DNA of 64,000 nt. Origin: Dehalococcoidia bacterium. GTDB taxonomy: Bacteria; Chloroflexota; Dehalococcoidia; SM23-28-2. The notes under the pieces were generated by a model. The model did not search any database. It saw only the letters and a list, made by a program, of their open reading frames with translations, and was not told where the DNA came from. The stretch is from contig DAOUEZ010000007.1 in the NCBI GenBank assembly GCA_034429995.1, positions 9,362 to 73,361 on the forward strand, read 5' to 3'. Shown here one piece after another: positions 4,525 through 56,814 of the stretch. The translations under genes and the position numbers were made by a program. The first letter of the stretch is position 1, and every line of letters starts with the position of its first letter.

Positions 4525-7500
4525 ATGCGACAAGACGTCGGGACGCTCCACCAGCTAGCTAAAATCACTATCGAGGGCGTCGCCGCCAAGGAGACCCTTG
4601 CCCTGGCGGCCAGCATCATTCGCCGAGCCACGGGGGCGGCCCAGGCCATGGTGGTCTATGCCGAGGACAAGGATTTGCTCGTTTGCAGTGATCCAGGCGA
4701 TGGTGCTGGCGCCGACTTCACCCAGATTGGTCTGTGGATAGTGCAGCGCCAGATCATAGAGCTGGGCGGGCCCGTGGTCTTCAACCTCATAGGTCAGCGG
4801 GTGGAGGATCTCACCAGCGCCTTCAGCGACGATGACCGCGAATTCCTAGCCTTGACCGTGCCGACCAGCCAGAGCCCGTCCGAGATGTGCATTCTCCGAG
4901 GGCCCTGGAACCACAAGCCGCGGGCTGGCATCTTACGCTTCATGGAATCGGCGATGCCTGCCCTCACTCTCATTCTGGAGCGGTTCCTCAACGCCGACCG
5001 CAGCCGTCGGCAGGGGGAGCAACTGCACACCCTGGCCAATGCAGCTCAGGTGCTTACCCGATCAGAGGATGTGGAAGCGGCCCTAACAGACCTGGCCACA
5101 GCTATCGCCGCGTCGACCGGATTCCAGTACATAGTGGACATCGATATGTACGATGCCACTACCGGCCGCTTCTCCCTGCGCACCCTGAGCGAACACCGCC
5201 ATACCAGCGGAACCCTGGCCCAGATCTGGAAGGCTAGCTTGAACCCGGACCGACCGGACCCCTGGAACACAGAAGTGATGAGCACTCTACAACCCGCATT
5301 CACACCCGACATGCAGAACGATCAACTGTATCCAGAACATGTGAGGACCTTCTTTACTCGCAGCCTCCTGAGGTCTTCAGCGAGGTTCCCCCTGCTGTTT
5401 CAGGACGAATTCGTGGGGACGATGAGCTTCGTCTCATTCGAGCCCCGCACCTTCCCTCCGGAGGAGGTCAGCTTTCTCCAGGGCCTTGTCAGCCAGGCGG
5501 CCACCGCCCTCAAGGCGCTGCGGATGCACCGGGAATTGCGGCGGTATACACACGAGCTCAAAAGGTCGGCCGATGAATACATCGCTACCACCAATCTGAC
5601 GGGGGACATGATTGGGAAGGTGGACGACCAGGGCAGGTGGACCTTCCTCAACAACGCCGCCTGCCAATTCTTTGGCAAGCCGAGAGAGGAACTCCTGGGT
5701 ACTGACTCCAGAGCTTCTGTGCATCCCGAGGACCTAGAGCCGACTGTCCAGGCGGTTCAAAAGTCGGCGGCGACAGGAGAGCCAATAGAGAGGTTTGTGA
5801 ACCGCCAGATCACGCCGATGGGGACAAGGGTGGTGGAATGGAACGCCTGCCCATTCTTCGATGAGGAGGGCCGGTACACTGGAATCCAGATGACGGGGCG
5901 TGACATCACTGAGCGCAAGCGGGCGGAGGAGGAACTGCGAGAGTCAGAGGAGAAATACCGAAGGGTAGTACAGGACTCCGCCGATGGGATAGTGATTTTT
6001 GAGGGAGTCGAAGTAAGGTTTGTGAACCAAGCACTACTGAGAATGTATGGCGTCGAGAGCGCCGAGGAGATAGTGGGCCGACCATTCGTCGATTTTGTAT
6101 CACCAAAGCACCGAGAGCTAATGGTAGGGAGAGCCCGTGCTAGGCAAAAGGGAGAAAATCCGCCTAGCCGGTATGAGTTCAAGGCACTGCGCAAGGACGG
6201 CACCGAGGTCGACGCTGAGATCTCTGTGAGCAGGATCACATACCAAGGAAGGCCAGCAGCCCAAGGAATAGTCAGAGACATCACCGAGCGCAAGCAGATG
6301 GAAGAGGCGCTGCGGGAGAGCGAGGAGCAATACCGCGCTATCTTCGAGCAAGCGGCAGACTCGGTTGTCCTCATTGACGCGGAGACCGGAGCGTTGGTGC
6401 AATCCAACGACAGGACGCACCAGACCCTCGGTTACACCCGCGAGGAATTCGAGACGCTCAACATAGCCGACTTTGAGATCACTGAATGTCCCGAGGAAGT
6501 AGCGAAGCACGTCGAGAGAATCGTCAAGGAGGGAGCCGATACCTTTGAAACGAAGCACAGGACAAAGGGCGGCGACATACGCAACATCGAGGTAAGGGCC
6601 AAGGCCATTTCCATCCGGGGGAGAGACTTCATCCAGGCCATATGGCGTGACATCAGTGACCGCAAGCGGGCGGAGGAGGCCCTACGAGAGAGTGAAGCAC
6701 GCTACCGTCTGCTTGCCGAGAACACAACAGACCTCATCTGGACCATGGATCTGGGCTTGAAATATACCTATATCAGTCCCTCCGTCACGCGTATGCGAGG
6801 CTACAGCGTTGAGGAAGTAGTTGGCAGCACGGTGGCAGAAACCATGACTCCTGCCTCCCTTGAGGCTGCCAGGAAGACCCTGGCGGAAGAGCTGGCCATG
6901 GAAAGGATGGAGCACAAGGACCTGCAGCGGTCGCGAAAGCTGGAGCTGGAGATGTATTGCAAGGACGGCTCCACCATCTGGACCGAGATGAATATGACTT
7001 TCCTGCGCGACCCGGACGGTCGCCCTGTTGGGATTCTGGGCACCACACGCGACATCAGCGAGCGCAAGCGGGCGGAGAGGGAGCGAGAGGGACTGTACGC
7101 CGAGCTGGAGTTGAGGGCCATCACCGACAGCCTCACCGGCCTCTATGACCACGCCCACTTCTACCAGCGCCTGGCCGAGGAGATAGAACGCTGCAAGCGG
7201 TACAAGCACAGCTTCGCCGTGGTGATGATGGATGTCGATGACTTCAAGCGCTTCAACGACTCCCGTGGCCACCAGGCGGGTGACAAAATGCTGCGCCTCG
7301 TTGGTTACTGCATCCGAGCGGGTCTGCGGCGCTCAGATATCGCCTTCCGCTACGGCGGCGATGAGTTTGCGGCGATACTACCGCACGCCGACTCATCAAA
7401 GGCACGGGCCGCGGTTGACCGCATAAATGAGCGCATCGCTAAGAGCCTCAAACACACGGACGATGGGGTTGCAACTCGCCTGAGTCTCAGCGCTGGCGTA

Positions 7501-8433
7501 GCCTGCTTCCCCGACGACGCAACAACTGCGGACGACCTGGTGCGAATAGCAGACGCTGCCCTATACAACGCCAAGTGGATAGCACGGGCTCGCGACATCA
7601 TGGGGCAGAGAGAAGATATCCAGTCATTGGTCTCTGCTTTGGTCAGTCGGCGAGCGGGGGTCGAGGCTCCAGCAGGCGGAATTATCTTCCGACCCGAGGC
7701 CTTGCATGAGCAGCAGGCGAGAATCGTCTCTAGTGTCGCCAGTTCCATCGCCGTGGCTCTCAAAGATGCCGGCGTGCCTGAGGCCCTTGAAGACCCGGAC
7801 CTGCAAGTTCTTGCCACTGTAGGCGCAGCAGCCGAGATCAAGGACCGGTACATTCGCGGACACCCGGAGCGCACGAGCGAGAGGGCTGTAGCCCTCGCCC
7901 AGGAGATGGGGCTCTCTCCCGAACGAGTGAGGGACATTCGGGTCGCCGGCCTTCTGCACGACATTGGCAAGGTCACCGTCAGCGAGGGCATTCTCAACAA
8001 GCCTGGCAAGCTGACCAAGAGGGAATTCGCCAGCATCAAAGACCACCCCATCGTGGGGGCTACCCTCATCTCCCAGGTCAGGGGCTTCGAACGATTGGTG
8101 CCGACCGTTCGCCATCACCACGAGCGCTTTGACGGCAAGGGCTACCCCGACGGCCTGGCTGGCGAAGAGATCCCCCTGGAGGCGCGTATCCTGAGCGTGG
8201 TAGATGTATTTGACGCCCTGACTCACCAGCGTTCCTACCGGAAAGCCCAGACCAAGGAGCACGCCATAGCTGAGCTAGAGCGCGGTGCTGGTACTCAGTT
8301 TGATCCCGCGGTGGTAGAAGCATTCCTCGCCTTGATGAAAAGACGAGGCGAGGAGCCCGCAGCCCCCGCACAAGCAGCGAGCGAGGACAGGCAGTTGGCG
8401 CCTGCGAGAGCACCCGCGCGGGGGAAACGATAA
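4525..8433 (+). CDS. GAF + 4xPAS + GGDEF + HD-GYP c-di-GMP signalling protein
   Basis: Four PAS/PAC units end in DI(T/S)(E/D)RK. RRSDIAFRYGGDEF gives an I-site plus an intact GGDEF. LLHDIGK and HHERFDGKGYP mark the HD-GYP domain. Confidence 0.93.
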   Translation: MRQDVGTLHQLAKITIEGVAAKETLALAASIIRRATGAAQAMVVYAEDKDLLVCSDPGDGAGADFTQIGLWIVQRQIIELGGPVVFNLIGQRVEDLTSAFSDDDREFLALTVPTSQSPSEMCILRGPWNHKPRAGILRFMESAMPALTLILERFLNADRSRRQGEQLHTLANAAQVLTRSEDVEAALTDLATAIAASTGFQYIVDIDMYDATTGRFSLRTLSEHRHTSGTLAQIWKASLNPDRPDPWNTEVMSTLQPAFTPDMQNDQLYPEHVRTFFTRSLLRSSARFPLLFQDEFVGTMSFVSFEPRTFPPEEVSFLQGLVSQAATALKALRMHRELRRYTHELKRSADEYIATTNLTGDMIGKVDDQGRWTFLNNAACQFFGKPREELLGTDSRASVHPEDLEPTVQAVQKSAATGEPIERFVNRQITPMGTRVVEWNACPFFDEEGRYTGIQMTGRDITERKRAEEELRESEEKYRRVVQDSADGIVIFEGVEVRFVNQALLRMYGVESAEEIVGRPFVDFVSPKHRELMVGRARARQKGENPPSRYEFKALRKDGTEVDAEISVSRITYQGRPAAQGIVRDITERKQMEEALRESEEQYRAIFEQAADSVVLIDAETGALVQSNDRTHQTLGYTREEFETLNIADFEITECPEEVAKHVERIVKEGADTFETKHRTKGGDIRNIEVRAKAISIRGRDFIQAIWRDISDRKRAEEALRESEARYRLLAENTTDLIWTMDLGLKYTYISPSVTRMRGYSVEEVVGSTVAETMTPASLEAARKTLAEELAMERMEHKDLQRSRKLELEMYCKDGSTIWTEMNMTFLRDPDGRPVGILGTTRDISERKRAEREREGLYAELELRAITDSLTGLYDHAHFYQRLAEEIERCKRYKHSFAVVMMDVDDFKRFNDSRGHQAGDKMLRLVGYCIRAGLRRSDIAFRYGGDEFAAILPHADSSKARAAVDRINERIAKSLKHTDDGVATRLSLSAGVACFPDDATTADDLVRIADAALYNAKWIARARDIMGQREDIQSLVSALVSRRAGVEAPAGGIIFRPEALHEQQARIVSSVASSIAVALKDAGVPEALEDPDLQVLATVGAAAEIKDRYIRGHPERTSERAVALAQEMGLSPERVRDIRVAGLLHDIGKVTVSEGILNKPGKLTKREFASIKDHPIVGATLISQVRGFERLVPTVRHHHERFDGKGYPDGLAGEEIPLEARILSVVDVFDALTHQRSYRKAQTKEHAIAELERGAGTQFDPAVVEAFLALMKRRGEEPAAPAQAASEDRQLAPARAPARGKR

Positions 8434-8502: not shown

Positions 8503-8766
8503 GAGGCCCTCGAGCGACCCGTGGTGGCTTCTCAGGAGGCCCTCATACTTGGGCCACTGCATCAGCGTCATCGATAACGGCTGAATTATCCGCTCTGGGC
8601 ATGCGCGCCCTCTGTGAGGCCCCACGGAGTGTCTCCTTCGGAGTTGAGGCTGGAGTCGCCCACAGCGAAGCCGACGCTGTCCACCCGCGCCCCGCGCAGA
8701 AGTGCTAGAATGCCCTTACACCAAGCCAGACTGTGCTGCCATGAACGGGGGAAGGAGGTGTCGGCC

Positions 8767-9345
8767 ATGGCCTACGAGGCAAAGGACTACAGCCACCTGA
8801 TAGGGATGGAGGGGTTCAGCGACACATTGCTGAGGAATCACTTCACCCTCTACCAGGGCTACGTCACCAATACCAACAAGCTGCTCGACCTTCTTAGCCA
8901 GATGGCCGAGGAAGGCAAGTTCGCCACGCCTGAATACGCCGAACTGAAGCGAAGGATGGGCTTCGAGTTCGACGGCATGCGCCTGCACGAGTACTACTTC
9001 GAGAACCTGGGCGGCAAGGAAGACCTCGGCGACTCGGCCAAGTTGCGGGACAAGCTGACCGCCGACTTCGGCAGCTACGAAGCCTGGGAGGCCGACTTCA
9101 AGGGCACCGGCGCCATGCGGGGCATCGGCTGGGCCATACTCTACCAGGACAACGTGACAGGAAGGCTGCTCAACCAGTGGATCAACGAGCACGAGACCGG
9201 CCATCTGGCGGGCTGTCTCCCCATCCTGGTCATGGATGTCTTCGAGCACGCGTTTATGCTGGACTATGGGTTGAAGCGGGCTGACTACATCGAGGCGTTC
9301 TTCAGAAACGTGAACTGGGAGGCGGTCGAAAGGCGCCTGATCTAG
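8767..9345 (+). CDS. Fe/Mn superoxide dismutase family protein
   Basis: Metal ligands are present in NHFTLYQGY, RLHEYYF and DVFEHAF. ATG 8767 follows the RBS AAGGAGGT; the ORF-track start at 8614 is an upstream extension. Confidence 0.9.
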   Translation: MAYEAKDYSHLIGMEGFSDTLLRNHFTLYQGYVTNTNKLLDLLSQMAEEGKFATPEYAELKRRMGFEFDGMRLHEYYFENLGGKEDLGDSAKLRDKLTADFGSYEAWEADFKGTGAMRGIGWAILYQDNVTGRLLNQWINEHETGHLAGCLPILVMDVFEHAFMLDYGLKRADYIEAFFRNVNWEAVERRLI

Positions 9346-9373
9346 GAGGCCCTTGAAAAAGCGCGCTTGTTTG

Positions 9374-9442
9374 CCCTTCGACACGCTCAGGGCGAGCGGG
9401 CTTGCAGTTCCGCTCGTGGTGAGCCTATCGAACCACGAGCGG
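9374..9442. repeat. Palindromic interspersed (REP-like) repeat
   Basis: CCCTTCGACACGCTCAGGGCGAGCGG followed by the hairpin CCGCTCGTGGT-N11-ACCACGAGCGG. A related core recurs at 48554 and 52460-52584. Confidence 0.65.
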
Positions 9443-9491
9443 CCCCAAGGGGGTATTTCAACAGCCTTGTAGGCTAAGGAAGGGGGATCCT

Positions 9492-9698
9492 ATGGCAGAG
9501 ACCACGATCACTCCTCTGGATGACGGCCCTTACCTAGTGAAGGGCCCGGCAAAGATCATTGATGCCACCAGCAACGAGTTCCGCGTAGAAGGCAAGACCA
9601 TTGCCCTCTGCCGCTGCGGCAACTCCAACACCAAGCCCTTCTGCGACGGAACTCATGTCAACGTCGGATTCAAGTCCAAAGACAGGGCTGCTGGCTAG
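9492..9698 (+). CDS. CDGSH iron-sulfur domain protein
   Basis: LCRCGNSNTKPFCDGTH (C-x-C-x9-C-D-G-[ST]-H). Confidence 0.93.
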   Translation: MAETTITPLDDGPYLVKGPAKIIDATSNEFRVEGKTIALCRCGNSNTKPFCDGTHVNVGFKSKDRAAG

Positions 9699-9717
9699 AC
9701 TAGTCAGGCATAAGGAG

Positions 9718-9733
9718 TGGTATCTTGATACCA
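9718..9733. promoter_or_regulatory. 7-2-7 palindrome, candidate operator
   Basis: TGGTATC-TT-GATACCA, 30 nt upstream of the ferritin-like gene start. Confidence 0.35.
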
Positions 9734-9762
9734 TACGAAGAACGATCAGAGGAGGTGTAGAA

Positions 9763-10059
9763 ATGCCCGAGTTCCTCAATCCCTTCCCCGGCATGGTGCC
9801 CGCTCGCAAGCTCACCCTCGAAGAGCTGGTCCGTGCCATCCGCCTGGACCTCGCCGCCGAGCACGAGGCGGTTCACCTATACATGGCCCACGCCGAGGCC
9901 ACCGATCACCCTCTGGCCAAGAAGGTCCTCATTGACATCGCCAACGAAGAGCGGGTCCATGCCGGCGAATTCGCCCGCCTAATCAGCATCCTGACGGGGG
10001 ATGAGGACAAACTCCTGGCGGAGGGTGCCGAAGAGGTGGACGAGATGGCTGAGAAATAG
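9763..10059 (+). CDS. Small ferritin-like protein (encapsulated-ferritin/rubrerythrin-like half four-helix bundle)
   Basis: MPEFLNPF...AAEHEAVHLY...IANEERVHAGEF; 98 aa; RBS GGAGGT before ATG 9763. Confidence 0.85.
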   Translation: MPEFLNPFPGMVPARKLTLEELVRAIRLDLAAEHEAVHLYMAHAEATDHPLAKKVLIDIANEERVHAGEFARLISILTGDEDKLLAEGAEEVDEMAEK

Positions 10060-10102
10060 GCCGCGGGCATCCCTGATATCATCGCCCGCTATTTGTCAGC
10101 GG

Positions 10103-10714
10103 TCAGAAGGCCATCTCTGGCTTCCAAACCTCCCAAACCTTGCCAGCCATTCTGAGGGTGTCGCTCTCTGGCGGCAAAGTAGGCTTGCCTGGCTGCCACC
10201 CGGAAGGCATCAGTTCCCCGGTGGCTTGGTGGTGCTGGAAAGCCCTCAACTGGCGTATGACTTCCGCCACGTTGCGGCCCACTGGTGGCGTTAGGATTTC
10301 CATGGCCTGGATCACTCCATCCGGATCGATAAGGAAGCGACCACGGACATCCACCCCCTTCTGCTCATCATACACTCCGTACAGGGAGCCGATCTTGCCT
10401 CCAGGATCCGAGAGCATGGGATAGGGGACACCGCCCTCCACCATTTTGGACAGCTCCACCTCTTGCCAAACCTTGTGGGAGTAGTTGCTGTCCACGCTGA
10501 CGGCAAGCACGTCCACCCCCAACTCCTGAAACTCAGCATACTTGACGGCAACTGCCGACAACTCGGTCGGTCAGACGCAGGTGAAGTCGGCAGGATAGAA
10601 GCAGAGCATTACCCACTTGCCTCGATAATCGGAGATCCTAACCTCCTTGGCCAAGCCCTCATGATACGCTTTGGCAGTGAAATCTGGCGCTTCCTGTCCC
10701 ACTCGGGCAGTCAT
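10103..10714 (-). CDS. prxU: Selenocysteine-containing peroxiredoxin (PrxU/AhpC family), in-frame UGA at 10571-10573
   Basis: ORF-track pieces 10571..10762 and 10103..10561 are in one frame. Read-through gives [14 protein letters not shown], placing UGA exactly at the peroxidatic Cys of PxxxTxxC. RBS AGGAGGTG precedes ATG 10714; 203 aa. Confidence 0.9.
10542..10561 (-). promoter_or_regulatory. Putative bacterial SECIS hairpin
   Basis: On the minus strand, TTG-T-CGGC-AGTT-GCCG-T-CAA. The loop starts 18 nt after the UGA and has G at loop position 2. Confidence 0.6.
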
Positions 10715-10755
10715 CTCCGTCACCTCCTCTTCTGCTTGCGCGCTCTCAGGATAAC

Positions 10756-11346
10756 CTACCACACCACCTCGTACAGCCGCTGCCTGCCGGGTATGCCCTT
10801 CAGTTGCCTGCGACCGGCATCCCTGAACGCCACCTCGGCCACCGAGCCGGCGAGGTCGCGCACCACTCCCGATACCAGGATCTGGCCACCTCGCGCCTTG
10901 TGGGCGATGCGCGCGGCCACACTGACGGCCGTGCCGAAGTAATCATTCTCTTCCCGAATCGACTCGCCGCTATTGAGGCCCACCCTCACCTTCATGGGCC
11001 ACTCCGGGTGTTCCCGGTTATAATCAGCGAAGGCCTTTTGGATGTCCACAGCGAAGTGCAGCGCCCTGGTTGCGCTTGGGAAAGCGGCCATGAAGCTGTC
11101 ACCCATGAACTTGATCGCCTGGCCTCCGTGGCGATCGACCCGCTCCTTAAGAATGCGATTATGATCCTGCAAAAGCTTGTGCGCGCGCTGGTCCCCCAGT
11201 TGCTGGGCAAGGGTGGTCCAGCCTTCGATGTCCGTGAACAACAGGGTGACTGTACCTTCAACAGGGGTCGGGGACAGGGCCTTGCCGCACCAGATGCAGG
11301 AGGACGAACCAGGTGGATTGTCTGCATTGCAGTAGGGACATCGCAT
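10756..11346 (-). CDS. Zinc-ribbon + class III adenylate/guanylate cyclase
   Basis: N-terminal CPYC...CIWC; cyclase motifs [16 protein letters not shown] and [13 protein letters not shown]. Confidence 0.88.
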
Positions 11347-11389
11347 CGATGGAAGTTCCAGGAGATCAGACGTCCGGCAGCGTGACCAC

Positions 11390-11419
11390 ATGGTAGGTTG
11401 TCGAAAGAGAGGTTGTCAA
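11390..11419 (-). promoter_or_regulatory. Putative promoter of the cyclase-prxU transcript
   Basis: Minus-strand TTGACA-N18-TACCAT; overlaps an AGGTTGTC direct repeat at 11395 and 11410. Confidence 0.45.
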
Positions 11420-11528
11420 GCGAGAATAGATCCGGGCGGCCGACGGATGTTTCAACGCTGCAGGGTGTTGGCTACAGGAAGGAGGAACGGAAGTGACAGG
11501 AGCGGAAGAAGGAGCAGAGACAAAGGGA

Positions 11529-12149
11529 ATGCCGAGGATCGGCGAGCAGGCGCCGGACTTCGAGGCGCTGACAACACATGGCCCCCTCACCATGAGCGAC
11601 CTGAGAGGCCAGTGGGTGGTTCTCTTCTCCCATCCCGCTGACTTCACGCCCGTCTGCACCACCGAGTTCGTCGCCCTCGCTCGGCACGCCGAGGAATTCG
11701 CCCAGCGCAATGTGAAGCTGGTCGGCCTGAGCATCGATAGCATCCATTCCCACCTCGCCTGGTTAAGGAACATCGAGGAGAAGTTAGGAGTCAAGATCCC
11801 CTTCCCCATCATAGCGGACGTGGACATGAAAGTTGCCAGCAAATTCGGAATGGTCCACCCAGAGGCCAGCACCACGGCCGCTGTGCGGGCCCTCTTTGTC
11901 ATCGATCCGGACGGGTTCATCCAGGCCATCGTCTACTATCCCTTGCAGACCGGCAGAAGCATCGATGAACTCCTGCGCCTCCTGGATGCCCTGCAGACTA
12001 CCCATCAGCACCACGTGGCTACGCCGGCTGACTGGCGTCCCGGAGAGAAGGTGATAGTACCCCCGCCCCTGACCGAGGAGCAGGTTGAGGAACTCCTGCG
12101 GTCAGACTACGAGAAGACCGATTTCTACCTGATGAAGAGAGACCTATAG
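11529..12149 (+). CDS. Peroxiredoxin (Prx6/1-Cys type)
   Basis: FSHPADFTPVCTTE, VRALFVIDP, TPADWRPGEKVIVPP. An alternative GTG start exists at 11493. Confidence 0.92.
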   Translation: MPRIGEQAPDFEALTTHGPLTMSDLRGQWVVLFSHPADFTPVCTTEFVALARHAEEFAQRNVKLVGLSIDSIHSHLAWLRNIEEKLGVKIPFPIIADVDMKVASKFGMVHPEASTTAAVRALFVIDPDGFIQAIVYYPLQTGRSIDELLRLLDALQTTHQHHVATPADWRPGEKVIVPPPLTEEQVEELLRSDYEKTDFYLMKRDL

Positions 12150-43218: not shown

Positions 43219-43270
43219 TAGCCTTGCCGCCGCCGTGCTGGCTCGTTGGTTTGATGGGATAGCGATTGCC

Positions 43271-44155
43271 ATGAAGATACAAAGTAAGAGCGGTGTGCCG
43301 GTATATACTGATTACGAGGAGAACACCGTCGTTGACCCTGACAACCGCGTTCTAGCCTGGAAGGCGAGTAAGGATAGATTCCCTCCGGGCCAATTCGGCC
43401 CAGAGATAGAGAAGGCCTTCCCGGAGGGGTTGCCACGTATTGGTAGCCGGCACAGTGAAGACGCCCTTTCGTGGAATCTCTTTCGCTCGCTGCAACTAGC
43501 CGGGAAGCTATCATTGGTGGGGGACTTCGCAGCTCCGGGGGAGGATTTTGAGGCGGTGTATTTCTGGGGCCGTGACGCCCACCAGGGAAGCGAGCAAATT
43601 GACCCTGAAATCCAGGAGCTCCTAAATGAGATGGAGCCATGGGGGAAGAACGGAACTCAGCAGCAAACCGAAACCGATGTCATGTTGGGAGGAAAACGGC
43701 ATATAATCATGATCGAGAGCAAGCTAGGCGAGGCCGGAAAAACAATCAAGGCCTGGTGCAGAAGCAGTCAAGGCATGCGTCCTGAGTACAGGGCCTTTCT
43801 GGAGAGAGTGGAGGAAGAGCGGAGCGAGCCCCTCTTCTCCCCTTCCTTTGACTACGAGAAGGACGGAAACCGTTTCTACCAGCTCTTCCGCAACTACCTC
43901 TTGGGGGCCGCCTTATCCTGGAAGTGGAAGGCCGACTTCTCGCTCTTGGCCATTGTGAACTCTCTGAACTCCAACCTGGGCGGCAGAAGTCACCAGGACG
44001 AATTCCAGTCCTTTGGGTCCCTCCTAGTACGCTCCTCAAACGCCCTCTTGACGACGTGGCAACAAATTTGGGAGCGTTTGCGTTCGGAATCAGGCTTGCA
44101 CAACTTGCAAATGTGGCTTTTGAACCATCCGCTTCTACAGTTGGAGGGGAGATAA
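43271..44155 (+). CDS. Putative PD-(D/E)xK restriction-endonuclease-like protein
   Basis: SEDALSWNLF, TETDVML...IESK, YQLFRN; visibly more AT-rich than its flanks. Confidence 0.6.
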   Translation: MKIQSKSGVPVYTDYEENTVVDPDNRVLAWKASKDRFPPGQFGPEIEKAFPEGLPRIGSRHSEDALSWNLFRSLQLAGKLSLVGDFAAPGEDFEAVYFWGRDAHQGSEQIDPEIQELLNEMEPWGKNGTQQQTETDVMLGGKRHIIMIESKLGEAGKTIKAWCRSSQGMRPEYRAFLERVEEERSEPLFSPSFDYEKDGNRFYQLFRNYLLGAALSWKWKADFSLLAIVNSLNSNLGGRSHQDEFQSFGSLLVRSSNALLTTWQQIWERLRSESGLHNLQMWLLNHPLLQLEGR

Positions 44156-49060: not shown

Positions 49061-52000
49061 TTACTGATCGAGATCTTCGGGTTCTCCTTCGTCGTGTGGG
49101 GAGGTTGTGGGGGTGGTGGGTTGGTGGGGGCGGATGAAGGCGAAGTAGTCGCGAAGGGCGGCAAGGTCGGCGTCGGTTAGGCCGTAGAGCGAGGCGACGA
49201 GGCGGTCGAGCTCGTCTTCGAGGGCGGGCCGGTCGGGGCGGGAGGGGTCTTGGTGGAGGAGGCGGCTTATCTCCTCGAGGCGGTGGACTGCGGGATCGGC
49301 GGTGCCGTCCCGGAGGAGGGTGACGATGGCCTCTGGGACGGGGAGGAGGCCGAGGACCCAGGCGTCAAACTGAGCGTATGCGCCGCGAGCATGCCTGGTA
49401 GGCACTGAGAGGAAAGCCCTGGAGGCGGCGGCGTTTAGCCAGGCAGCAAGGACGTAGCCTGCAGTGGGGGTTGGCACAGGGATGCTGTAGACGTTATCAA
49501 GAGGCAAGAGCTCGACTTCACCTTGGAGCGCGGACTCGTGCGTGGCCGGGGGAAGGTAGGCGGCCTCGAGGATGGCGGATATTCTTTTCCAGGCAACCTT
49601 GTGGCCGAGCTTGTCTTTACTGACGCGAAAGATAGCCCAAGGAGGCATGTTGGACCGGTAGTCGTTCCGAGCCCGCAGGGCGGCGGCGTGGCGTTCAAAG
49701 TATTCCTTCGCCTTGGGTGGGAGGTCGGGGAGGACGCGGCCGGTTTGGTCATCGTGGGTCCAGAGGATGTAGTCTTGGACGCGGTAGCGCCAGGCCTGTA
49801 TGTCTGCTGCCTGGACGATAGGTCGCAGTAGGCGTCTTTCTACGCGGGCCATGTACTTCACCCGTTCCTGTTCCGGAGTGCGAGCTTCGTAGTACCCCTC
49901 GCTCCTTATCAGGACGTCAGCGGGAGATTCAGTAGCTTGGAGGCTTTTCACTACATACAGGGCGGTGAAGGATGTCTTGATGCCCATCTGGGGCTGGTGG
50001 CCGGGCGTCTCGCCTAAGAGGGGCCGCAGCCGAGGGGAGCCGTCGGGGGCGGGGGCGGCGGCGGTCTGCATGCGGTCGAAGGCGCGACGGACGGGAGGGG
50101 GGACAAGGGCCCAGGGGGATTCGGCGTCGTAGTCCAGGAGCGGTAGGTCGGACTTCAGGAGCGGTAGGTCGGTCTGGGGAAGGTTGAACGCGAGGCGGTC
50201 GCCCGTGGGGCCGATGACCACTGCGGATAGCTGGTGGCGCGGTTCAGGGGCGCTGTTCTCGAAGCTGAGGATCAACGGGTAGTTGGTGGCGTCCTCGAAG
50301 AGGGGCGTGGCGTGGAGGGAGTAGTCGGAGAGGTGGAGGATGCGGGTGTTCTGGACGAGAGCCTTGCGGAGGGCGTTGCCGTAGAGGGCGTGGATAACCT
50401 TGGAGGTGATAATGAAGCCGAGGCGGCCGCCGGGTCTGAGGAATTCGATGCCACGCTCGACGAAGGGCAAGGCGTAGTCGATCTGGCGGGCGAAGCCGCG
50501 GCCGGCGCCGGCTAGCTGGGCGCCGCGGCGCCAGCCGGCGTCCATGCAAAGGCTGTACTCAGCGAAGAGACGCTCACGGATGTGGGGGCTGATGTTGTGA
50601 ATGCGGACCCAGGGAGGGTTGCCAACGACGAAGTCACAGGTTTGGCGAAGCTCCTCGACGTTGAGGGTGTTGTGGAGGAGGGGAAGCCAGCGCATGTCGC
50701 GGTTACGGTTGTGCCTCTTGACGATCTGGGTGACGAAGCGGCGGATTGTGTCTTCGTAGGGTAGGTAGGTGTCCTGGGGAACGTCCTGCCAGAAGCGGGC
50801 CCACACGGCGTCGAGGTCGAGGGTCGGCTGGGGGAAGCGGGCGATGGCCTGCTTGACGCGGGCCATGAGGTCGTGCCAATCGAGGTCGCTATGATGGGGG
50901 AGGGCGAACTTTTCGTCGAGGCCGGGGAGGTGGACGGTCACAAGCCGTCGCATGCCGGGTAGGGTCTCGCGGGCGGCGCTGAGGCGAAGGAGGGAGTCGG
51001 CCCAGTAAATGGGAATGGGGATGGAGCGGGCGGTGGGCAGAAGGTCAGCGATAGCGAGGATGTAGTTGACGCGGGCCATGGCGACGGCAAAGGGATGGAT
51101 GTCGACGCCGATGATGTTGTGGGTGACGGCGCGGATGAGAGCCTGGTCGTCGGCGGTTTGGTTGGCGTGGATGAGGCGCTGGATGGCCCTGATGAGGAAG
51201 GTGCCGCTGCCGCAGGTGATGTCGGCGAGGCGCTTATCTAGCTGGCCGGTGTAGCCAACAGCATCAAGGGCCTCATCAACGAGATCCGGCGAGGTGTAGA
51301 ACTCGCCCAGGGCGCGGCGGGCGGCGGGATCGAGGAAGCGCTGGTAGACCAAACGCAGGAAGTCGTGGCCGACGGCGACGAGGTCGACGTCATCGAGGTT
51401 CTGGGCCATGGTGTGCAGGGAATTGTTGAGGGAGTTTTCGGTGGTGCGGTCGTAGGCGGCGGCGTCGGAAGGCCACAGGAACACGTCCTCTTCAAAGACT
51501 CCAGCGAGGCGGGGGATGTAGCGTTCCAATTGGCTGAGAGCAAGGACGGGGCTCTGCTGGCCGAAGAGTTCGGTGAGGGAGGCATAGTGGGTGAGCTGTT
51601 GCTGGACGGCAACGCGGGCGACGAGCAGCTTGAGGAGAGTAGCGAGGTACGTTTCTACGACGAATAGGTATTCTTCTACGTGAGCCTTGGAGCGTAGGGT
51701 GATGCCCATCTGGCTGGCTGCCCGCTTCAGCCCTTGTGTGGTTTCGGCGGTGAGGTTGGTGGTTACGCCGTAGAGGCCCTGCCAAACCTTGAAGACCTCT
51801 TCGATGAAGCCGACCTGAGTGCGGAACTGGCGGAACGACTGCCAGAGCACGTCGATCATTTCGTGGGCGGGGTCGGAGGTGGGGCCTAGGCGGGCCACAA
51901 AGTCGGCGGGCTCGATGACATCTCCGGCAAGGGAGATAAGCCAGGCCTGGAGCTTGGTGGCGAGGGTGGAGGGGCGGCCGGAAGCGATGGCTTGGCCTGC

Positions 52001-52366
52001 CTCGTCAAGGAGAGTCATATGGAGGCCGTCGTAGGCGACCCCGCGAGCTTGCCTGCCACCGTGGCGGGCGGAGAACTCCTGGATGTAGCCCTTGGCCTGG
52101 GAGACGGCGGCCTCGATTCCTGGCCCTGCTGGCTGGGGAAGCTTGGCCTCGAAGACGATGGCGCCGACGCGGGCGTCGGGGCGGCCGGTTACCAGCTTCT
52201 GGTCTAAGACGATTTGGACGCCCCTCTGAGCGATGCCCTTGTGATGAAGGAACTGATTGAGGGCCTCGACGAAGTGCTGACGGAGGGTGGACTCCTCGTG
52301 TATTTGGGGAGCCCTGCGCTCCAGGGCCGCGAGGCGTCTGGGGAGAGACGGTGCCTGCGGGACCAT
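49061..52366 (-). CDS. Type IIG-like restriction endonuclease / N6-adenine methyltransferase fusion
   Basis: N-terminal PDARVGAIVFEAK (PD-x7-ExK), GEFYTSP, motif I DITCGSGTFL, motif IV GNPPW, C-terminal TRD-like region; 1101 aa. The exact start is uncertain. Confidence 0.82.
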   Translation of the reverse strand: MVPQAPSLPRRLAALERRAPQIHEESTLRQHFVEALNQFLHHKGIAQRGVQIVLDQKLVTGRPDARVGAIVFEAKLPQPAGPGIEAAVSQAKGYIQEFSARHGGRQARGVAYDGLHMTLLDEAGQAIASGRPSTLATKLQAWLISLAGDVIEPADFVARLGPTSDPAHEMIDVLWQSFRQFRTQVGFIEEVFKVWQGLYGVTTNLTAETTQGLKRAASQMGITLRSKAHVEEYLFVVETYLATLLKLLVARVAVQQQLTHYASLTELFGQQSPVLALSQLERYIPRLAGVFEEDVFLWPSDAAAYDRTTENSLNNSLHTMAQNLDDVDLVAVGHDFLRLVYQRFLDPAARRALGEFYTSPDLVDEALDAVGYTGQLDKRLADITCGSGTFLIRAIQRLIHANQTADDQALIRAVTHNIIGVDIHPFAVAMARVNYILAIADLLPTARSIPIPIYWADSLLRLSAARETLPGMRRLVTVHLPGLDEKFALPHHSDLDWHDLMARVKQAIARFPQPTLDLDAVWARFWQDVPQDTYLPYEDTIRRFVTQIVKRHNRNRDMRWLPLLHNTLNVEELRQTCDFVVGNPPWVRIHNISPHIRERLFAEYSLCMDAGWRRGAQLAGAGRGFARQIDYALPFVERGIEFLRPGGRLGFIITSKVIHALYGNALRKALVQNTRILHLSDYSLHATPLFEDATNYPLILSFENSAPEPRHQLSAVVIGPTGDRLAFNLPQTDLPLLKSDLPLLDYDAESPWALVPPPVRRAFDRMQTAAAPAPDGSPRLRPLLGETPGHQPQMGIKTSFTALYVVKSLQATESPADVLIRSEGYYEARTPEQERVKYMARVERRLLRPIVQAADIQAWRYRVQDYILWTHDDQTGRVLPDLPPKAKEYFERHAAALRARNDYRSNMPPWAIFRVSKDKLGHKVAWKRISAILEAAYLPPATHESALQGEVELLPLDNVYSIPVPTPTAGYVLAAWLNAAASRAFLSVPTRHARGAYAQFDAWVLGLLPVPEAIVTLLRDGTADPAVHRLEEISRLLHQDPSRPDRPALEDELDRLVASLYGLTDADLAALRDYFAFIRPHQPTTPTTSPHDEGEPEDLDQ

Positions 52367-55761: not shown

Positions 55762-56814
55762 GTGCGTGAGTATGAGGTCCGCCAGCGCCTGGAGGAGCGC
55801 GAGTCGCTCCTCTCACCCTTCGCCGCCAGGAGCTGCGAATCGCGCGGGCGGGAGCGGCCGGAGGAGCCCTCGCCCCTGCGCACGGAGTTCCAGCGCGACC
55901 GCGACCGCATCATCCACTGCAAGGCCTTCCGCCGCCTGAAGCACAAGACGCAGGTGTTCATCGCCCCCGTGGGCGACCACTTCGTCACCCGCCTCACCCA
56001 CACCCTGGAGGTGGCCCAGATCGCCCGCACCATCGCCCGCGCCCTCAACCTGAACGAGGACCTGACGGAGGCCATCGCCCTGGGCCACGACCTGGGCCAT
56101 CCGCCCTTCGGCCACGCCGGCGAGGAGGCCCTGGCCGAGCTCCTGCCCGAGGGCTTCCGCCACGCCGAGCAGAGCCTGCGGGTTGTAGAGCGCCTGGAGA
56201 ACGGCGGCCATGGTCTCAACCTCACCTGGGAGGTGCGCGACGGCATCGTCAACAGCTCCAAGGGGCGGCAGGACATCCTGGCCGACACCCTCGGCATGCC
56301 GGCTACCCTGGAGGGACAGGTCGTGCGGCTGGCCGACGCCGTGGCCTACATCAATCACGACATCGCCGACGCCGTGCGGGCGGACATCCTGACCGAGGAG
56401 GAGCTGCCCGCCGCCGTGAGCGAAGCCCTGGGGCGCGGTCACTCCCAACGCATCAACACCCTGGTGTGCGACATCGTCGACCACTCGTGGGCGGCGACCG
56501 GCCTGGTAGCGAGCGAAGCCTCTCCCCGCATCGGCATGGGGCCATCCATCGAGAAAGCGGCCAACGCCCTGCGGGAGTTCCTCTTCCAGCGGGTCTACCT
56601 GTGGGAGGACAGGCAAGGAGAGGTAGAGCAGGCCAAACGAGTGGTGCGTTTCCTGTTCCAATATTATGTGGAGCGGCCGCAGCAGATCGATAGCGACTTC
56701 CTGATTTCGTCGGACCCACCCTGGCGCCAGGCAGCCGATTACGTCGCCGGCATGACCGACCTGTTCGCCCTGAATACGGCCGCCCGCCTGGGCTTCAGAG
56801 AGGAAAGGCTATGA
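55762..56814 (+). CDS. dgt: Deoxyguanosinetriphosphate triphosphohydrolase-like protein
   Basis: FQRDRDRIIH, FRRLKHKTQVF, TRLTHTLEV, GHDLGHPPFGHAGE, DYVAGMTD. Start uncertain (55744, 55750 or 55762). Confidence 0.93.
   Translation: MREYEVRQRLEERESLLSPFAARSCESRGRERPEEPSPLRTEFQRDRDRIIHCKAFRRLKHKTQVFIAPVGDHFVTRLTHTLEVAQIARTIARALNLNEDLTEAIALGHDLGHPPFGHAGEEALAELLPEGFRHAEQSLRVVERLENGGHGLNLTWEVRDGIVNSSKGRQDILADTLGMPATLEGQVVRLADAVAYINHDIADAVRADILTEEELPAAVSEALGRGHSQRINTLVCDIVDHSWAATGLVASEASPRIGMGPSIEKAANALREFLFQRVYLWEDRQGEVEQAKRVVRFLFQYYVERPQQIDSDFLISSDPPWRQAADYVAGMTDLFALNTAARLGFREERL
55774..55790 (+). repeat. 17-bp direct repeat, right of the TA cassette (inside the dgt 5' end)
   Basis: GAGGTCCGCCAGCGCCT. 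Confidence 0.75.

Follow-up and report, generated by a model that had tools for sequence, protein, structure and literature searches.

Peroxiredoxins (Prx) are a verified family of selenoproteins with the motif TxxU (PMC13188914, PMC1088965; Sohling et al. 2001 is cited there). The closest described relative of the protein studied here is PrxU of Eubacterium acidaminophilum (Sohling et al. 2001, cited in PMC13188914), with which it has the curated family NF040737 in common. Both share selenocysteine (Sec) at the peroxidatic position of PxxxTxxU, the lack of a canonical C-terminal resolving Cys, a Cys at residue 38 (LCFYP) and a SECIS element just 3' of the UGA codon. Reviews give the Prx family motif only as TxxU, and CxU is listed for unrelated families (PMC13188914). 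In the Prx fold five positions are recognised for the resolving Cys: the N-terminus, the C-terminus and helices alpha2, alpha3 and alpha5 (PMC4749874). Here we describe a prxU gene found in a 64-kb window, by which we mean the whole stretch of DNA that was analysed. It differs from the other PrxU members that we fetched, e.g. the Clostridiaceae locus L065 and the long forms described below, in reading T-C-V-U instead of T-F-V-U, and it is without the N-terminal extension that the NF040737 model includes. The locus as a whole is, with considerable confidence, best explained as a Prx1/AhpC-class PrxU selenoprotein of a distinct clade carrying C38, C46 and U48, and we weigh the role of Cys46 separately.

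The prxU coding sequence occupies 10103..10714 on the minus strand and has 203 codons including Sec48, from an ATG at 10714..10712 to a TGA stop at 10105..10103. Its start agrees with homologues that begin MTARVGQ, and a Shine-Dalgarno sequence GAGGAGG read from the sequence lies 8 nt 5' of the ATG (10723..10729, minus); the frame extends no more than 16 codons upstream of the ATG and encodes no Cys there. Translation gave a sole in-frame TGA at 10573..10571 (minus), at residue 48, and the true stop being TGA as well, one mRNA uses UGA both for Sec and for termination. The original prediction had pointed to an in-frame TGA with an intact frame on both sides, a hairpin behind it and the sequence ELMPSGW, and all of these were found in place. 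The only Cys residues of the protein are C38, in the beta-strand LCFYP (codon 10601..10603, minus), and C46, two residues before Sec (codon TGC, 10577..10579, minus), which gives the C-x-U motif.

With U read as C the protein scored 336 bits against the NCBIfam equivalog NF040737 (peroxi_PrxU; cutoff 270), and the next best model, AhpC TIGR03137, gave 173 bits, under its cutoff of 272. The protein is thus the Sec-type peroxiredoxin of the PrxU family that it had been proposed to be. The match covers profile positions 35-233 only, the Cys-bearing N-terminal region (1-34) being missing; since many short family members share this feature, we take it as a difference of subtype and not as grounds for exclusion. 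Pfam domains were AhpC-TSA and a 1-cysPrx_C tail, and the nearest solved structures are typical 2-Cys Prx such as 4KB3 and human Prx2 1QMV (E ~1e-47). The active site PxxxTxx(C/U) and the conserved Arg are present as P41, T45, U48 and R124; P41, T45 and R124 are invariant in the alignment with homologues, and in these residues and in the fold the protein agrees with human Prx2 (1QMV), Leishmania peroxidoxin (4KB3) and Salmonella AhpC (4MA9). Unlike these typical 2-Cys Prx it has Sec at the peroxidatic position (CP), and its C-terminal tail differs and carries a 3-residue insertion. Translation and alignment further showed that the site of the canonical C-terminal resolving Cys (E-V-C-P-A-G-W, or IPCGW) reads ELMPSGW (residues 167-173; 10196..10216, minus) and is free of Cys, as originally noted, the Cys of IPCGW in 4KB3 aligning to Ser171. 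The description of the gene as a “hidden selenoprotein” holds as far as the selenoprotein gene is concerned and overstates its novelty, because Sec-containing Prx have been known since 2001 and have a curated NCBI model; among bacterial selenoprotein genes prxU is of an ordinary type that was already known.

Relatives were collected by a scan of one genome per species, of which the best 80 loci (L001-L080) were kept; these are mostly metagenome-assembled genomes (MAGs) of Dehalococcoidia and Anaerolineae and include some Desulfobacterota and other groups. TGA stands at the Sec codon in every one of the 80. Metagenomes, scanned with a Cys-type relative as seed, added 19 sequences with TGC or TGT and 13 further sequences with TGA, so that U and C are interchanged at the peroxidatic position. 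Overall the column holds TGA in 94 sequences and TGC/TGT in 19 remoter relatives, in line with the exchange of UGA and Cys that the original prediction had looked for among aligned homologues. The gene could be no selenoprotein at all if the TGA were a sequencing or assembly error or the mark of a pseudogene, or if UGA meant Trp or Gly in a recoded genome. The finding of TGA at one codon in 94 independent assemblies excludes chance or sequencing error, and the relatives have Cys, not Trp, at the site. Among 24 genomes of the clade described below, per-codon differences were 0.34 synonymous versus 0.27 non-synonymous upstream of the UGA and 0.43 versus 0.16 downstream; differences are thus mostly synonymous on both sides and both halves must be translated. 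On either side of the UGA the intact frame shows purifying selection, contrary to what a pseudogene would give. Conserved genes of the window, among them glmS, dnaG, moeA and prxU itself, are terminated by TGA and the genetic code is therefore standard, and no other convincing TGA-interrupted gene was seen within the 64-kb window.

Two observations speak for the non-selenoprotein reading. The first is that the window holds no Sec machinery: ARAGORN found no tRNA-Sec in the 64-kb window or in 60 loci, and tblastn with E. coli SelA, SelB and SelD against the window and loci (1.17 Mb) returned nothing below E = 1. At the level of the lineage only, support for Sec use comes from Dehalococcoidia MAGs with 46 and 49 selenoproteins on record (PMC13326102). 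The second is that some database entries give W for the codon. In the protein database the family appears in several guises, as full-length Cys forms, as full-length entries with “W” and as many C-terminal fragments of 152 aa and N-terminal fragments of 47 aa, the fragments being labelled AhpC by JGI. About 67 of the best 120 entries are full-length and show “W” in place of Sec (FVW, YVW or CVW with PTE, ATE or GTE next), and nearly all of these lie on short contigs of about 1-2 kb. Apparently the gene caller read the TGA as Trp (code 4/25), an error that affects selenoproteins systematically in metagenome protein sets, and the “W” entries are best read in this way. Taken together with the conservation of the SECIS hairpin shown below, these data make the non-selenoprotein reading exceedingly improbable. 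In the window itself mechanical ORF calling splits prxU into a 63-aa piece ending FTCV and a 152-aa piece, and the forecast that standard gene callers would divide the gene is borne out by the 47-aa and 152-aa fragments that fill the database. ARAGORN also called an 88-nt “tRNA-His (gtg)” at 56034-56121 (minus), inside an HD-domain ORF at 55762-56814 (plus). Rfam at gathering score placed no tRNA in the window and the true tRNA-His of related loci is 77 nt long; the call is probably a false positive.

Downstream of the UGA the SECIS-like hairpin UUGUCGGC-AGUU-GCCGUCAA spans 10542..10561 (minus), with its loop at 10553..10550. The loop begins at the 18th nt after the UGA, leaving 17 nt between them, and the hairpin has the small apical G-containing loop shortly 3' of the UGA by which bacterial SECIS elements are recognised. 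The bSECISearch model allows a spacing of 16-37 nt. We aligned the 94 Sec-type sequences from 6 nt before to 45 nt after the UGA. In the helix (columns 19-26/31-38) 84% of cells are paired, and five of the eight pairs show compensatory changes, with columns 24/33 going from G-C to A-U, U-A and C-G. The observed covariation was reached by none of 500 shuffles, and sliding the hairpin to other registers made it pair worse in every case. The AGTT-loop hairpin predicted 18 nt 3' of the UGA is therefore present and supported by these measures. Most sequences have AGUU as the tetraloop, and 12 of the 94 have GGUC. GGUC is the loop of the E. coli fdhF SECIS, in which it starts at a similar distance from the UGA.

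As the hairpin overlies codons for S/T/A-A-V-A-V, part of its conservation is due to amino-acid constraint alone, but the synonymous choices do not follow from it. The Val codon of the loop is GTT or GTC in 91 of 94 Sec forms versus 3 of 19 Cys forms (Fisher 8e-14, kinship ignored), the other 16 Cys forms having GTG. The hairpin with its G-U-containing tetraloop is thus conserved at synonymous sites. Two Cys forms, L098 and L100, nest among the Sec forms and keep the Sec/SECIS-type codons GCN-GTT-GCC; their sequences suggest recent conversion from Sec to Cys with the SECIS left behind as a fossil. Single-sequence folding of the SECIS region was not significant (z -0.68 and -0.96). The 41-nt minimum free energy fold of the window sequence favours another helix, CCGAC/GUCGG, which is specific to the window and lies directly after the UGA; it was rejected with zero covariation and a value matched by every shuffle. 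An Rfam search of the whole window at gathering thresholds gave no match, and a permissive scan of 10480-10620 gave chance miRNA and snoRNA matches only and no SECIS family.

The T-C-V-U motif is confined to 24 of the 80 genome loci (L001-L022, L026, L029), and the others are mostly T-F-V-U, which agrees with the claim that it is unusual within the family. The T-C-V-U loci have FYPADF and the 3-residue insertion near the C-terminus in common, and EL(M/L/T)PSGW was present in all 23 that cover this motif (it was not recovered in L026). In a neighbour-joining tree they form, with the window, one near-monophyletic clade into which only L067 (T-L-V-U) intrudes. The 24 full-length members share 66-97% protein identity and 65-94% nucleotide identity, and Cys38, Cys46 and Sec48 are invariant among them, so that the extra Cys is indeed conserved on alignment of homologues. 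Both Cys codons vary synonymously (TGC 19, TGT 5), which shows that selection acts on the amino acid. The closest relative among the species representatives, L001 (CAZEJO01), is labelled Dehalococcoidia; its PrxU is 96% and its neighbouring Prx6 93% identical to those of the window, in a syntenic arrangement. A GlmS identical to that of the window is present in the NCBI MAG GCA_964608485.1 and in sediment-type JGI metagenomes (3300031356, 3300031278 and 3300032029).

A protein search took the first 76 residues as query, with Cys at position 48 in order to catch T-C-V-C words. It gave 105 N-terminal fragments of the family that stop at the UGA, with the ending FTCV in 92 (each a metagenomic cluster), FTFV in 11 and FTYV in 2, and no T-C-V-C protein. 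The T-C-V-U variant is thus widespread in metagenomes and, as far as the index can tell, always paired with Sec. The C-x-U clade is an undescribed variant of the known PrxU family.

The second cysteine of PrxU takes different places across the family. Long forms, represented by 40 loci, carry an N-terminal extension of about 40 residues with an invariant Cys in (G/S)C(V/G)xP(A/T)xGP, together with C38 and U48; the NF040737 profile includes this extension, and another motif for its Cys is GC(A/G)(R/K)PTGxxVG (L031-L080, P0003-P0118). The extension Cys is probably an N-terminal (“Nt”-type) resolving residue that partners Sec. Where the extension ends (KEEV/QKEG), a Shine-Dalgarno-like GAGG is encoded directly in front of an internal Met, and long and short PrxU isoforms might both be made from the long-form genes. 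Short forms have C38 and U48 only, some with an extra Cys at 1-2, 72 or ~171, and the window's clade has C38, C46 and U48 (window numbering) and no extension. In a more distant sister group (L081-L113) residue 38 is Tyr and Cys are found at 159 and 192 (GKVCEIW), with either U or C at position 48. The alpha2 resolving Cys of Prx lies at CP+5. None of the positions recognised in atypical 2-Cys Prx (Nt, alpha2, alpha3, alpha5; PMC4749874) is occupied by Cys in the window's protein.

We compared the fate of the extension Cys with the presence of Cys46. T-F-V-U long forms keep the extension Cys in all 40 loci and in 5 of 5 fragments. T-C-V-U forms that retain the extension (MAEAKDS-x-VEPAKGPI) keep it in 2 of 8 and have it replaced in the other six (by R, R, P, P, A and A), losses that are not phylogenetically independent events. 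Most T-C-V-U genes, that of the window included, have lost the extension altogether, and all that remains of it in the window is the tail AQAEEEV, which now serves as untranslated leader and ribosome-binding site. Loss of the N-terminal Cys where C46 is present is what would be expected if Cys46 had taken over its job.

These observations lead us to a possible catalytic cycle. By analogy with established Sec decoding in bacteria, SelB with Sec-tRNA(Sec) would recognise the mRNA hairpin and insert Sec at the UGA. The selenolate would then reduce H2O2 or organic peroxides and be converted to a selenenic acid, which Cys46 (CP-2) could attack, closing an 11-membered ring through a local Se-S bond, and thioredoxin would reduce the Cys46-Sec48 bond, possibly via Cys38. 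Attack of Cys46 on the selenenic acid followed by reduction of the Cys-x-Sec selenenylsulfide by thioredoxin would be the likeliest recycling route, which we propose tentatively from the pattern of conservation. The original prediction, too, had proposed that Cys46 could be the resolving residue by way of a local selenenyl-sulfide, and the comparative data are in accord with it. With the same reserve, and at somewhat less than even confidence, we suggest that Cys46 may be a true resolving residue at a sixth location in Prx, and that it may have freed a widespread clade, mainly of Dehalococcoidia and Anaerolineae MAGs, from the need for the ancestral N-terminal resolving Cys. Such a role would seem to be selenium-only because no T-C-V-C form was found.

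The protein could instead work as a 1-Cys-type selenoperoxiredoxin in which thioredoxin or a small thiol acts directly on the selenenic acid to reduce it, with Cys46 serving for packing, for tuning of Sec reactivity or for protection against over-oxidation. Short T-F-V-U relatives that lack both the extension and Cys46 and have only C38 and U48 do exist (L023-25, L028, which is also listed as T-Y-V-U, L047, L056 and L065), and a resolving Cys may therefore be dispensable in the family; Tyr at -2 (T-Y-V-U in L028, L030 and P0012) further shows that outside the clade the site tolerates side chains other than a thiol. Against this stand the strict invariance of Cys46 across the clade, kept despite the divergence of its proteins and the synonymous variation of its codon, the lack of a Cys-for-Sec version of the T-C-V form in our search and the decay of the N-terminal Cys specifically where C46 is present. 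We consider the 1-Cys-type mechanism rather unlikely. Cys38 might also be the partner of Sec48, or act in a relay in which the Se-S bond first made with C46 gives way to a C38-C46 disulfide. Of the 80 genome loci, all of them TGA-bearing, 79 have Cys38 (the exception is L067); it is also invariant in the clade, and Tyr replaces it exactly in those forms that carry C159 and C192. However, C38 aligns to the Phe of the beta-strand “LFFYP” in solved Prx structures, a position that is probably buried, and its coexistence with the N-terminal Cys in the long forms means that it does not look like a substitute for that Cys. A partnership or relay through Cys38 is thus improbable, and attack by Cys46 is the route that we favour.

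The prxU gene lies in an oxidative-stress cluster (window 8614-12149), and the genome around it is probably Dehalococcoidia-like. Its neighbours are an Fe/Mn superoxide dismutase (SOD; about 8764-9345, plus), a CDGSH iron-sulfur protein (9492-9698, plus), an ORF without Pfam match (9601-10059, plus) that is conserved in L001 and L002 and has a putative half-ferritin-like E..H pattern, a zinc-ribbon adenylate/guanylate cyclase that shares the strand of prxU and lies 41 nt upstream of it (10756-11391, minus) and a Prx6-type 1-Cys peroxiredoxin (11493-12149, plus). This neighbourhood is common only to the closest relative L001. SOD is also found near prxU in L023-25, L027, L035, L080 and L098, and no conserved partner gene adjoining prxU, such as thioredoxin, was found in the loci compared. 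Directly upstream of the cluster a 1302-aa signalling protein (4525-8433, plus) combines GAF, four PAS, GGDEF and an HD-GYP-type HD domain. Elsewhere in the window glmS is flanked by an 1101-aa fused restriction-modification gene of the Eco57I / N6-methyltransferase type (49061-52366, minus) and a gene of the REase-ARP family (43235-44155, plus). Sibling contigs differ at 48.5-49.2 kb, with a 163-aa minus-strand ORF in L120 versus a 193-aa plus-strand ORF in L121.

The selenoprotein gene itself is routine and shows once more how annotation pipelines truncate such genes, with both fragments deposited as “AhpC” and some short contigs mistranslated with Trp. Of wider interest is that the second Cys is unusually mobile within this one family, occurring in the N-terminal extension or at 2, 46, 72, 159/192 or 171, which makes PrxU a compact system for studying the evolution of resolving residues. 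In this it resembles the atypical 2-Cys Prx, where a resolving thiol has arisen repeatedly at different places, and the Cys of the long-form PrxU resembles their “Nt” type. The thiol of the window's protein differs from these in lying at CP-2, in the loop before alpha2 and outside the five positions of PMC4749874, and its resolving role is putative. Whether a thiol only two residues away from the peroxidatic chalcogen can act as the resolving group is a question for which the C-x-U clade is a natural test case. A small strained ring that a disulfide would not allow may be acceptable in Se-S chemistry, which may explain why C-x-U occurs only with Sec. Mammalian thioredoxin reductase carries adjacent Cys and Sec in GCUG, in a fold unrelated to that of PrxU. 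CxU is also found in rhodanese-like form 3, UshA-like proteins, ferredoxin-thioredoxin reductase and Trx-like Sec.1 (PMC13188914), which again differ from the window's protein in having unrelated folds. What these selenoproteins share with the window's PrxU is a Cys at most two residues from Sec, an arrangement in which a small-ring selenenylsulfide would be possible.
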